Shown piece by piece: positions 20,372-53,302 of a stretch of DNA of 64,000 nt. The position numbers and the translations under genes are program-made. The notes beneath the pieces were generated by a model that searched no databases, was not told where the DNA came from, and was given only the letters and a program-made list of their open reading frames with translations. Position 1 is the first letter of the stretch. The number at the start of each line of letters is the position of its first letter. Source of the stretch: Escherichia coli (GTDB lineage: Bacteria > Pseudomonadota > Gammaproteobacteria > Enterobacterales > Enterobacteriaceae); the NCBI RefSeq assembly GCF_036507355.1, contig NZ_AP027877.1, one strand, 5' to 3'.

Positions 20372-22036
<1,665 letters not shown>

Positions 22037-24904: not shown

Positions 24905-26151
24905 GGTGTTGTTAGCCTTCGGAATTCATCAAGTGATATGGGATGTCCATGTATTGTCCCACCGCTAAGTTCAACTCGAACCCATTGAGATTCTTTACCC
25001 TCACTGGCCCCAATAACTTTCCCCATATCTTTTACTTTCCATGGTTTACCGTTGGTAACAGGTGTGCCTGTATTAAAAACATCGTATTCCAGCGTTTTAA
25101 TATCAATATCGGGAGAATATTTTGCCGGGCCTGATTTTGTTGATTTAATTATATCCTTCCATGATTTGTTTTTTGGAGGAAAATGTTTGTATCCATGATT
25201 TGTCCATTCAGGTTGCCCACACTTTAAACCTAACGGGTCGATCCACCCCAACGGATTCGGCGCGTATTGGTATAAATTTAATCCACCAAGCAGCCCTATC
25301 GGATCCGTTACCATGAACCGCCCGACATCCGGATCATAGTACCTGTGCAGATTGTAGTGCAGCCCCGTTTCCCTGTCGAGGTACTGTCCCTGGTAGCGCA
25401 GGTTCTGCTCCACCCTGCCGTGGTCCTTCTCCTGTATCGTGTTACCCCAGACCTGATACCCCGTCTCCCACACGATTCTCCCGTCGCTGTCCGTCATCTC
25501 TTCCGGCGCACCGTTCACATCCGTGTGAAAATACAGTATCCGGTTCGGGCCCTCTTTGCCTGCCTTATCCACCCGCGCCAGCGGTTCATAACTCCCCGGG
25601 TCCCTGTAGATGTACAGGCTGCCTGTTCCCTCCGGCCTGCTCTCCTGCGCCAGCCGCATTCCGTCCCATAAAAATTTTGTCCGGTTGTACGGTTTACCGT
25701 CAGGGCTGATGTGCTGTTTTTCCGTCCGCCTCCCCAGTGCATCGTACACATACCGGTATGCCCCCCGCGCTGTCGTCACTTCCACCATCCGGTGTTCCGC
25801 ATCATAACGGTAACTCTGCGTTCCGCTCCGGCCCTCCTTTTCCACCGCACGGCCAAATTCGTCATAACGGTAGTGCACACCACGGTAAGACATCAGCCGG
25901 TTGAACGGCACCACGCTGTTTTCTGCCGTGGCCCTTTCCCCCGCGCGCCTCCCCAGCAGGTTTCCCGCCGCGTCGTACTGCCAGCTCGCCAGATACCCCT
26001 CATCCTCCGAACGGCACGCCGTGATGCGCCCCGTGGGGTCGTAGAAGTAATCCGTTTCCCCCCGCCGGCTGTGCCGCGTCTTCAGCAGTTCATCCTCGCC
26101 ACTGTAGCTGTACTGCCGGTCCGTGAACGTCTCCGGTACCACCCCGCGCAT
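24901..26151 (-). CDS. Rhs protein, C-terminal part: end of YD-repeat core, PxxxxDPxGL motif and a 107-aa toxin tip. Same frame as the upstream fragment, separated from it by an in-frame TAG
   Basis: ORF contains YD repeats (YRYDEFGR, YRYDAEHR, YVYDALGRR) and the hallmark YYDPDVGRFMVTDPIGLLGGLNLYQYAPNPLGWIDPLGL, followed by a low-GC tip KCGQPEWTNHGYKHF...TIHGHPISLDEFRRLTTP. Frame arithmetic: the TAG at 26221-26223 is in frame with this ORF. Confidence 0.85.
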   Translation of the reverse strand: MRGVVPETFTDRQYSYSGEDELLKTRHSRRGETDYFYDPTGRITACRSEDEGYLASWQYDAAGNLLGRRAGERATAENSVVPFNRLMSYRGVHYRYDEFGRAVEKEGRSGTQSYRYDAEHRMVEVTTARGAYRYVYDALGRRTEKQHISPDGKPYNRTKFLWDGMRLAQESRPEGTGSLYIYRDPGSYEPLARVDKAGKEGPNRILYFHTDVNGAPEEMTDSDGRIVWETGYQVWGNTIQEKDHGRVEQNLRYQGQYLDRETGLHYNLHRYYDPDVGRFMVTDPIGLLGGLNLYQYAPNPLGWIDPLGLKCGQPEWTNHGYKHFPPKNKSWKDIIKSTKSGPAKYSPDIDIKTLEYDVFNTGTPVTNGKPWKVKDMGKVIGASEGKESQWVRVELSGGTIHGHPISLDEFRRLTTP

Positions 26152-40814: not shown

Positions 40815-41579
40815 ATGAAATTGAATATCCGCGCGCAAACTGCACAAAACCAGCACAATAATTCTCCCATCGTTCTTGTCCATGGTCTGTTTGGCAGCCT
40901 CGACAACCTTGGCGTACTGGCTCGCGATCTGGTAAACGATCACAATACCATCCAGGTTGATATGCGTAACCACGGTCTTTCACCGAGAGATCCGGTAATG
41001 AATTACCCGACGATGGCGCAGGATCTTGTTGATACCCTGGATGCACTGCAGATCGACAAAGCAACATTTATCGGTCACTCCATGGGCGGTAAAGCGGTAA
41101 TGGCACTTACTGCACTGGCCCCCGATCGCATCGATAAACTGGTGGCGATCGATATCGCACCGGTCGACTATCACGTACGCCGTCATGATGAGATTTTCGC
41201 GGCTATCAACGCGGTCAGTGAATCGGACGCACAAACTCGCCAGCAAGCAGCAGCAATAATGCGCCAGCATCTTAATGAAGAAGGGGTGATTCAGTTTCTG
41301 TTGAAATCTTTTGTTGACGGGGAGTGGCGCTTTAACGTGCCGGTATTGTGGGATCAGTATCCGCATATTGTGGGTTGGGAGAAAATCCCGGCATGGGATC
41401 ACCCTGCCCTGTTTATCCCTGGTAGTAATTCTCCGTATGTTAGCGAGCAGTACCGTGATGATTTACTGGCACAATTTCCACAGGCACGGGCGCATGTGAT
41501 TGCAGGCGCGGGTCACTGGGTCCATGCTGAAAAACCGGATGCGGTATTACGCGCTATCCGTCGCTATCTCAATGATTAA
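40815..41579 (+). CDS. ybfF: Alpha/beta-hydrolase esterase
   Basis: 254-aa ORF MKLNIRAQTAQNQHNNSPIVLVHGLFGSLDNLGVLARDL... with GHSMGG nucleophile elbow. Confidence 0.93.
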   Translation: MKLNIRAQTAQNQHNNSPIVLVHGLFGSLDNLGVLARDLVNDHNTIQVDMRNHGLSPRDPVMNYPTMAQDLVDTLDALQIDKATFIGHSMGGKAVMALTALAPDRIDKLVAIDIAPVDYHVRRHDEIFAAINAVSESDAQTRQQAAAIMRQHLNEEGVIQFLLKSFVDGEWRFNVPVLWDQYPHIVGWEKIPAWDHPALFIPGSNSPYVSEQYRDDLLAQFPQARAHVIAGAGHWVHAEKPDAVLRAIRRYLND

Positions 41580-41582
41580 CGC

Positions 41583-41602
41583 AACTGATTAAAAACCCAG
41601 CG
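41583..41602 (+). promoter_or_regulatory. Candidate LexA box upstream of ybfE
   Basis: aaCTGattaaaaacCCAGcg fits the CTG-N10-CAG spacing with an AT-rich centre; ybfE is reported as SOS-regulated. Assignment is tentative. Confidence 0.4.
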
Positions 41603-41718
41603 TCCGCGTCGCTTTCCGCGCGTGGGCGTTGGCGTGACTCATCGCGCTGATGTATTATGGCGCGCTATCCATCCGGGCAGAGGCCTGGCTGATTGTTTCC
41701 CCCGAAGTCACCAAGATC

Positions 41719-42012
41719 ATGGCCAAAGAACAAACGGACCGTACGACATTAGATCTGTTCGCGCACGAGCGTCGACCGGGACGACCGAAAACAAATCCGC
41801 TTTCGCGCGATGAACAGCTGCGTATTAATAAACGCAACCAGCTAAAACGCGACAAAGTACGTGGCCTTAAGCGTGTCGAACTGAAGCTGAACGCGGAAGC
41901 TGTCGAGGCGCTGAACGAGCTGGCGGAATCGCGCAATATGAGCCGTAGCGAACTGATCGAAGAGATGTTAATGCAGCAACTGGCGGCGCTGCGTAGTCAG
42001 GGCATCGTTTAA
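41719..42012 (+). CDS. ybfE: LexA-regulated small protein (CopG/ribbon-helix-helix-like)
   Basis: Start placed at [47 protein letters not shown] (97 aa) inside track ORF 41650..42012. Confidence 0.8.
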
Positions 42013-42151
42013 ATTTCCACTTTCATGTAGCACAGTGTGCAGTCCTGCTCGTTTGCTGATTCCGCAAGACTGCCTGTTCTGCTATGATTGCCTTTATCCG
42101 TGGGCAATTTTCCACCCCCATTTCAATAAGTTTCAAGAGGTTATTTCACTC

Positions 42152-42682
42152 ATGGCTATCACTGGCATCTTTTTCGGCAGCGACACCGGTAATACCGAAA
42201 ATATCGCAAAAATGATTCAAAAACAGCTTGGTAAAGACGTTGCCGATGTCCATGACATTGCAAAAAGCAGCAAAGAAGATCTGGAAGCTTATGACATTCT
42301 GCTGCTGGGCATCCCAACCTGGTATTACGGCGAAGCGCAGTGTGACTGGGATGACTTCTTCCCGACTCTCGAAGAGATTGATTTCAATGGCAAACTGGTT
42401 GCGCTGTTTGGTTGTGGTGACCAGGAAGATTACGCCGAATATTTCTGCGACGCATTGGGCACCATCCGCGACATCATTGAACCGCGCGGTGCAACCATCG
42501 TTGGTCACTGGCCAACTGCGGGCTATCATTTCGAAGCATCAAAAGGTCTGGCAGATGACGACCACTTTGTCGGTCTGGCTATCGACGAAGACCGTCAGCC
42601 GGAACTGACCGCTGAACGTGTAGAAAAATGGGTTAAACAGATTTCTGAAGAGTTGCATCTCGACGAAATTCTCAATGCCTGA
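42152..42682 (+). CDS. fldA: Flavodoxin 1
   Basis: Start placed at [48 protein letters not shown] (176 aa) inside track ORF 42035..42682. Confidence 0.96.
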
Positions 42683-52081: not shown

Positions 52082-53302
52082 ATGACACCAGGCGGACAAG
52101 CTCAGATAGGTAATGTTGATCTCGTAAAACAGCTTAACAGCGCGGCGGTTTATCGCCTGATTGACCAGTACGGGCCAATCTCGCGGATTCAGATTGCCGA
52201 GCAAAGCCAGCTTGCCCCCGCCAGCGTAACCAAAATTACGCGTCAGCTTATCGAACGCGGGCTGATCAAAGAAGTTGATCAGCAGGCCTCCACCGGGGGC
52301 CGCCGCGCTATCTCTATCGTCACCGAAACCCGCAATTTCCACGCAATCGGCGTACGGCTTGGTCGTCACGACGCCACCATCACCCTGTTTGATCTCAGCA
52401 GCAAAGTGCTGGCAGAAGAACATTACCCGCTGCCGGAACGTACCCAGCAGACGCTGGAACATGCCCTGCTGAATGCCATTGCTCAGTTTATTGATAGCTA
52501 CCAGCGCAAACTGCGCGAGCTGATCGCCATTTCCGTTATCCTGCCAGGGCTTGTTGACCCGGACAGCGGCAAAATTCATTACATGCCGCATATTCAGGTA
52601 GAAAACTGGGGGCTGGTAGAAGCACTGGAAGAGCGTTTTAAAGTGACCTGTTTCGTTGGTCACGATATCCGTAGTCTGGCGCTGGCGGAGCACTACTTCG
52701 GTGCAAGTCAGGATTGCGAAGACTCCATTCTGGTGCGTGTCCATCGCGGAACCGGGGCCGGGATTATCTCTAACGGGCGCATTTTTATTGGCCGCAACGG
52801 TAACGTCGGTGAAATTGGCCATATTCAGGTCGAACCGCTGGGTGAACGCTGCCACTGCGGCAACTTTGGCTGCCTGGAAACTATCGCTGCCAACGCCGCT
52901 ATTGAACAACGGGTGTTGAATCTGTTAAAGCAGGGCTACCAGAGCCGCGTGCCGCTGGACGACTGCACCATCAAAACTATCTGCAAAGCCGCGAACAAAG
53001 GCGATAGCCTGGCCTCGGAAGTGATTGAGTATGTCGGTCGTCATCTGGGCAAAACCATCGCCATTGCCATCAACCTGTTTAACCCGCAAAAAATTGTTAT
53101 TGCCGGAGAAATCACGGAAGCCGATAAAGTGCTGCTCCCTGCTATTGAAAGCTGCATTAATACTCAGGCGCTGAAGGCGTTTCGTACTAATCTGCCGGTG
53201 GTACGTTCTGAGCTGGATCACCGCTCGGCAATCGGCGCTTTTGCGCTGGTAAAACGCGCCATGCTCAACGGTATTTTGCTCCAGCATTTGCTGGAAAATT
53301 AA
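52082..53302 (+). CDS. nagC: ROK-family transcriptional repressor of the nag regulon
   Basis: 406-aa ORF MTPGGQAQIGNVDLVKQLNSAAVYRLIDQYGPISRIQIAEQSQLAPASVTKITRQLIERGLI... with N-terminal HTH and ROK sugar-kinase-like domain. Confidence 0.96.
   Translation: MTPGGQAQIGNVDLVKQLNSAAVYRLIDQYGPISRIQIAEQSQLAPASVTKITRQLIERGLIKEVDQQASTGGRRAISIVTETRNFHAIGVRLGRHDATITLFDLSSKVLAEEHYPLPERTQQTLEHALLNAIAQFIDSYQRKLRELIAISVILPGLVDPDSGKIHYMPHIQVENWGLVEALEERFKVTCFVGHDIRSLALAEHYFGASQDCEDSILVRVHRGTGAGIISNGRIFIGRNGNVGEIGHIQVEPLGERCHCGNFGCLETIAANAAIEQRVLNLLKQGYQSRVPLDDCTIKTICKAANKGDSLASEVIEYVGRHLGKTIAIAINLFNPQKIVIAGEITEADKVLLPAIESCINTQALKAFRTNLPVVRSELDHRSAIGAFALVKRAMLNGILLQHLLEN

Follow-up and report, generated by a model that had tools for sequence, protein, structure and literature searches.

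A previously published weak LexA box downstream of ybfF in Escherichia coli: a predicted, lineage-restricted site outside the ybfE core promoter

The ybfF-ybfE intergenic region was analysed within a 64,000-nt stretch of Escherichia coli DNA, referred to here in its entirety as the window, which is 100% identical to K-12 MG1655 over positions 41540-41730. Of the neighbouring genes, pgm and seqA are encoded by the minus strand; ybfF, ybfE, fldA, and fur are encoded by the plus strand. A 701-bp query from this locus finds a match in 5424 of 5426 complete E. coli genomes, with the flanking genes annotated as "ybfF: esterase" and "ybfE: LexA regulated protein"; RefSeq/PGAP and NCBIfam family NF008671 likewise assign the product name "LexA regulated protein" to ybfE. 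Conway et al. describe an operon ybfE-fldA-uof-fur with three promoters (PMC4161252). The features relevant to the analysis are as follows.

40815-41579, plus strand: ybfF, an esterase of the alpha/beta hydrolase type, with stop codon TAA at 41577-41579
41583-41602, strand not assigned: 20-bp LexA-box-like palindrome
41595-41635, plus strand: GC-rich hairpin in the transcript, predicted from its fold (-29.5 kcal/mol, z = -2.9) and from covariation
41629-41658, plus strand: sigma-70 promoter of ybfE, with -35 TTGGCG at 41629-41634, an 18-nt spacer, and -10 TATTAT at 41653-41658, assigned from a scan, the literature, and conservation
41719-42012, plus strand: ybfE (K-12 b0685), encoding a 97-aa ribbon-helix-helix protein named "LexA regulated protein" (NF008671, 169 bits; Pfam RHH_1)

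The palindrome, AACTGATTAAAAACCCAGCG, begins 4 nt past the ybfF stop, and its end and start lie 117 and 136 nt, respectively, 5' of the ybfE ATG. The left half-site CTG (41585-41587) and the right half-site CAG (41598-41600) enclose a 10-nt centre, ATTAAAAACC, in which 8 of 10 bases are A or T. A preliminary description had pointed to a CTG-N10-CAG element with an AT-rich centre at this position, directly after the ybfF stop and about 115 bp from the ybfE start, and these particulars agree with the coordinates determined here. In K-12 the box occupies 712015-712034 (K-12 coordinate = 753617 - window position p). Its core, CTGATTAAAAACCCAG, has been given as the ybfE LexA site in a paper that credits Fernandez de Henestrosa et al. 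2000 (PMC2585105), and a later study, taking a heterology index (HI) of 11 from Courcelle et al. 2001, terms it a predicted weak LexA box (PMC11228462). As relayed in these accounts, the box of Fernandez de Henestrosa et al. 2000 (Mol Microbiol 35:1560; HI ~11) shows no difference from the present one in core, gene, or post-ybfF position. The element at 41583-41602 is the previously published weak ybfE LexA box and is already known. By the same accounts its publication dates back to 2000, and automatic annotation now names the gene after it.

Two inverted CTG motifs at an exact spacing of 10 bp are the stated requirement of specific LexA binding (PMC5999292), and the box has this architecture. 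The bare CTG-N10-CAG pattern is without diagnostic value, with 28 occurrences in the window where shuffled sequence gives 13.8 +/- 3.8; only two of the 28 copies have a centre in which A+T makes up 8 or more of the 10 bases. The sole other copy in the window with an AT-rich centre, CTGCATTAATACTCAG, has an HI above 14.8. Scoring against a matrix, which the preliminary description had proposed as a check, employed the 18 LexA boxes tabulated in PMC3009722, from which both the HI and a symmetrised position weight matrix were derived. The box has an HI of 10.8 (10.83) and 13.6 bits, ranking first by HI and second by the symmetrised matrix among the ~128,000 strand-positions of the 64-kb window, and the matrix scan of the window found no better LexA-like site near ybfE. 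This top site of the window is intergenic. In similarity to the consensus TACTG(TA)5CAGTA, validated sites fall below an HI of about 13-15, and the box lies within this range at its weak end, close to the published value and bearing out the moderate consensus match noted earlier. Its main penalties come from A6 (3.4), the A in place of T after CTG, from the final G20 (2.1), and from T7 (1.8). For comparison, the weakest boxes of the training set have leave-one-out HI values of 11.4 (ftsK), 11.8 (dinB), 12.6 (polB), and 12.8 (dinG).

The number of sites with HI <= 10.83 expected per 64 kb is 0.53 under an independent-base model and 0.18 in a first-order Markov simulation, in which 13% of simulated windows contain at least one; roughly 13-38 sites of equal quality would be expected by chance per genome. 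Although the resemblance is genuine and unsurpassed in the window, the score by itself carries no compelling statistical weight. The other weak LexA-like sequences of the window, at 53152-53167, 25519-25538, 20425-20444, and 21726-21745, comprise CTGCATTAATACTCAG and three 20-mers with HI values of 12.2-12.5 that each miss one half-site; judged by their sequences, none of these looks like a real box.

The promoter scan detected a single sigma-70-like plus-strand promoter between ybfF and ybfE, TTGGCG-18-TATTAT, and exactly this element in the ybfF-ybfE spacer has been reported by Shimada et al. as the constitutive RpoD-holoenzyme promoter of ybfE (PMC3946193). Among 59 distinct Enterobacteriaceae sequences the -35 region, CGTTGGCG, is invariant and the -10 hexamer is conserved as TATGAT or TATTAT, the latter in Escherichia, Klebsiella, and some Citrobacter and the former in others. 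From the position of the -10 element we infer a transcription start site (TSS) near 41665, corresponding to K-12 711952. The end of the box (41602) is separated from the start of the -35 hexamer (41629) by 26 bp, and its centre falls at about -73 relative to this start; the box lies upstream and neither overlaps nor abuts the core promoter or TSS of ybfE. LexA operators usually lie across the core promoter or the TSS of the genes that they control, and a location near -73 is atypical for a repressor that occludes RNA polymerase. The scan found no promoter overlapping the box itself, and two hexamers within it, TAAAAA and GATTAA, were rejected by eye as -10 candidates because neither ends in the conserved T or is paired with a usable -35. 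In Salmonella, the boxes of LexA-dependent genes lie 21.6 +/- 5.8 bp from the start codon, over the TSS, and more distant boxes (58.8 +/- 11.6 bp) with HI values of about 10 are associated with LexA-independent behaviour (PMC8072944). Compared with these distant Salmonella boxes, the ybfE box is farther still from its start codon, at 117 bp, and has an HI of about 11.

The promoter assignment also bears on the start of ybfE. A longer, 120-aa ybfE open reading frame (41650-42012, plus strand) would begin at an ATG (41650) upstream of the inferred TSS and would contain the -10 hexamer, so that it could not be translated from a transcript of the TTGGCG-18-TATTAT promoter; this favours the start at 41719, which gives the 97-aa protein of the current K-12 annotation and is the credible one. 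Conservation around the -10 element (41636-41670, plus strand) reaches well past the hexamer, with CTGATGTATGATGGCGCGCT nearly invariant across genera. This segment may be the operator of another regulator, possibly of YbfE itself, a proposal made because YbfE is a ribbon-helix-helix protein. Farther downstream, the 5' leader of ybfE contains a small hairpin, CCGGGCAGAGGCCTGG (41673-41688, plus strand), followed by a T-rich stretch, CTGATTGTTT, which is terminator-like according to the scan. Orthologues retain a hairpin at this place whose stems differ in sequence (CCCGGGCGGCAGCCCGA and CCCGGGCATTAGCAGGG are examples), suggesting that the leader contains a conserved structure or an attenuator.

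Some evidence for constraint on the box comes from within Escherichia. Seven sequences from E. coli lineages, an Escherichia sp., and E. albertii were compared over the 139-bp intergenic region, which contains 17 variable sites, none of them in the box (P = 0.06). The invariant run coincides exactly with 41583-41602, its nearest variable neighbours being 41581, 41582, and 41603. The comparison is suggestive only, but it hints that something constrains the box in this genus.

Beyond Escherichia the half-sites are not generally conserved upstream of orthologous genes. A single YbfE scan of a species-representative genome collection returned 80 loci from about 25 genera, of which 59 distinct orthologous sequences were compared. 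One of the loci comes from a contig of 606 bp (NZ_JAAGWF010000077.1) that is assigned to the actinobacterium Geodermatophilus sabuli and encodes an enterobacterial YbfE (87% identical), probably through contamination of that assembly. Both half-sites are intact in 15 of the 59 sequences, confined to Escherichia (3/3), Citrobacter (11/12; HI of the aligned boxes 13.5), and Yokenella (1/1); in none of the more than 20 other genera examined, which retain the same promoter, are both intact, and HI values there are 14-28. At the aligned position the pair is incomplete in Salmonella (CTG...CAT), in Klebsiella, in Enterobacter (TTG...CAG), in Kluyvera (ATG...CAT), and in Kosakonia. Others have similarly found no LexA box for ybfE of S. 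Typhimurium. The columns that are invariant or nearly so across the 59 sequences are T4, G5, T8, A9-A12, C19, and G20, whereas those critical for LexA are less conserved: C3 in 35/59, C16 in 46/59, A17 in 39/59, and G18 in 40/59. The T and G of the left half-site are invariant with its C retained in 35 sequences, and the right half-site CAG is intact in 22.

The columns that do persist coincide with features unrelated to LexA. TGA at box positions 4-6 (41586-41588) terminates ybfF in 52 of the 80 sequences, usually preceded by the Asn codon AAC, and TAA at positions 8-10, overlapping it in another frame, serves as the stop in 9 more. In Escherichia, ybfF instead stops 9 nt upstream (TAA or TAG), yielding a YbfF protein shorter by three residues (...YLND* versus ...YLNDxxN*), and AACTGA is no longer coding. 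The sequence comparison indicates that the conserved box columns are explained by the ancestral ybfF Asn-stop AAC-TGA, the TTAAAAA run, and the 5' base of the neighbouring hairpin.

That hairpin contains box positions 13-20 on its 5' side and the whole -35 hexamer TTGGCG in its 3' arm; in E. coli the CCAG at the box end pairs with the TTGG of the -35. The minus strand of the E. coli sequence folds poorly (z = -0.09, against -2.9 for the plus strand), since G.U pairs of E. coli and Citrobacter become A.C mismatches there. With the hairpin specified by hand and evaluated over the 59 Enterobacteriaceae sequences, 77.6% of cells are paired across genera, compared with 34-54% in slid controls, and compensatory changes occur at three core pairs; RNAalifold found no consensus structure in an ungapped alignment of 58 columns. 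The abundance of G.U pairs, together with the weak fold of the E. coli minus strand, points to a plus-strand RNA structure. Two terminator assignments were rejected. A Rho-independent terminator on the plus strand would need a U-tract after the stem-loop, where GUGACUCAUCG is found instead, and the terminator scan made no call; an intrinsic terminator on the minus strand (hairpin plus T5 run, TTTTTAAT) was set aside as the main reading on account of the z-score and of the 5 nt between the core stem and the T-run. No Rfam family matches within 41300-42300, and a literature search on ybfF and terminators gave nothing relevant. A 3'-end or stability element of ybfF and insulation of the ybfE promoter are possibilities for its role.

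These observations raise the question of whether the box resembles a LexA site only by accident and plays no part in LexA control, its sequence retained as a remnant of the ybfF stop region, an A-run, and a hairpin base. The pattern of column conservation, with T4, G5, T8-A12, C19, and G20 kept in preference to C3, C16, A17, and G18, is what such an origin would leave, and the use of TGA (52/80) or TAA (9/80) as ybfF stop, the CCAG-TTGG pairing, the chance expectation of 0.2-0.5 per window, and the LexA-independent expression of ybfE (PMC11228462) all fit with it. Nonetheless, AACTGA is non-coding in Escherichia, yet the whole 20-mer alone is invariant there between variable flanks, and older genetic data, as cited by others, report LexA dependence. 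On balance, the absence of any LexA role is unlikely.

Reports on ybfE expression diverge. Reviews count ybfE among the LexA-regulated SOS genes, and Northern and microarray studies from 2000/2001, as cited by others, put it in the LexA-regulated class. A ybfE promoter-GFP fusion is UV-responsive, though Culyba et al. excluded it as a kinetic outlier for which use of an alternative sigma factor was suspected (PMC5999292). A UV tiling-array study makes no mention of the gene. RNA-seq analysis of cells treated with AZT shows 4.0-fold induction of ybfE that is not reduced in a lexA3 background (0.74-fold lexA dependence) and a 2.9-fold dependence on SspA, leading the authors to state that ybfE expression "is not lexA-dependent" (PMC11228462). 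Ciprofloxacin does not induce ybfE in K-12 (PMC11002266). The effect in EHEC is only marginal, and in Salmonella nalidixic acid induces ybfE and MX does not. Our literature search for E. coli LexA ChIP-seq retrieved studies in other species only.

Whether the box is a fully functional, classical SOS operator, from which LexA substantially represses the ybfE promoter as in any bona fide member of the regulon, can be judged against this record. The standing of ybfE in reviews and databases, the UV induction of its promoter fusion (PMC5999292), and the invariance of the 20-mer in Escherichia speak for such an operator, but induction that is independent of lexA3 (PMC11228462), the failure of ciprofloxacin to induce (PMC11002266), the exclusion of the gene by Culyba et al. 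(PMC5999292), the low match quality (HI about 11), and the position of the box 26 bp 5' of the -35 without overlap make it distinctly unlikely.

The weak validated E. coli boxes of polB, dinG, dinB, and ftsK resemble the ybfE box in having CTG-N10-CAG or nearly so, and their leave-one-out HI values (11.4-12.8, versus 10.8 for ybfE) are of comparable size. They sit within or beside their core promoters, unlike the ybfE box, which is centred near -73 relative to the inferred TSS. Expression of these four genes shows a 1.7- to 6.9-fold lexA dependence, compared with 0.74-fold for ybfE (PMC11228462). The validated symE (yjiW) box, CTGATGATATATACAG, shares with the ybfE box an unusual A that produces CTGA in place of CTGT; it is a better match overall (HI 7.9) and, unlike ybfE, symE has LexA-dependent expression (2.5-fold; PMC11228462).

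One further alternative, that LexA bound 4 nt past the end of ybfF blocks transcription reading through from ybfF into ybfE-fldA-uof-fur and does not repress the ybfE promoter, would account for a box placed directly after ybfF and upstream of the promoter, followed by a hairpin without a U-tract through which ybfF transcripts may continue, but it is purely inferential, a weak site would make an ineffective roadblock, and the operon begins at ybfE according to Conway et al. (PMC4161252), making this proposal very improbable.

The reading we favour, with moderate confidence, is that 41583-41602 is a predicted weak, lineage-restricted LexA-binding site whose effect on ybfE is small or conditional. 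At LexA operators generally, a LexA dimer contacts both CTG/CAG half-sites spaced 10 bp apart. By analogy, a dimer would occupy the two half-sites of the ybfE box, and DNA damage would empty the site through RecA-stimulated self-cleavage of LexA. Binding here would be weak and its effect on ybfE at most modest or condition-dependent, with much of the DNA-damage induction of the gene likely LexA-independent. The box would have been built on pre-existing sequence (AAC-TGA, TTAAAAA, and the 5' hairpin base) outside the core promoter. The preliminary description had called the site the likely LexA operator of ybfE. Its identity stands, inasmuch as the core is that of the published site; its function as an effective repressor site is not secure, because the box lies outside the core promoter, is unconserved beyond Escherichia and Citrobacter (Yokenella 1/1), and accompanies lexA3-independent induction. 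The allied claim that ybfE is LexA-regulated has a similarly divided outcome, supported by the 2000/2001 studies as others cite them and by the annotation name, and opposed by the lexA3 RNA-seq result of LexA-independent induction. That older classification, as it is transmitted in later papers, would argue for a stronger role than the one assigned here.

A more far-reaching formulation, tentative and somewhat doubtful, is that the ybfE "LexA box" does not work as an operator and is an Escherichia/Citrobacter-specific by-product of three older constraints, with damage induction that is LexA-independent and partly SspA-dependent. If this were true, ybfE would have to be removed from the direct LexA regulon. 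The comparative analysis fits the 2024 RNA-seq result, in which induction of ybfE has no need for LexA cleavage. Its value is modest and corrective, lying in the attribution of the conserved box bases to non-LexA features and in the placement of the box outside the conserved promoter. Together, the results suggest that the name "LexA regulated protein", carried by thousands of Enterobacteriaceae genomes, overstates what is established outside Escherichia.
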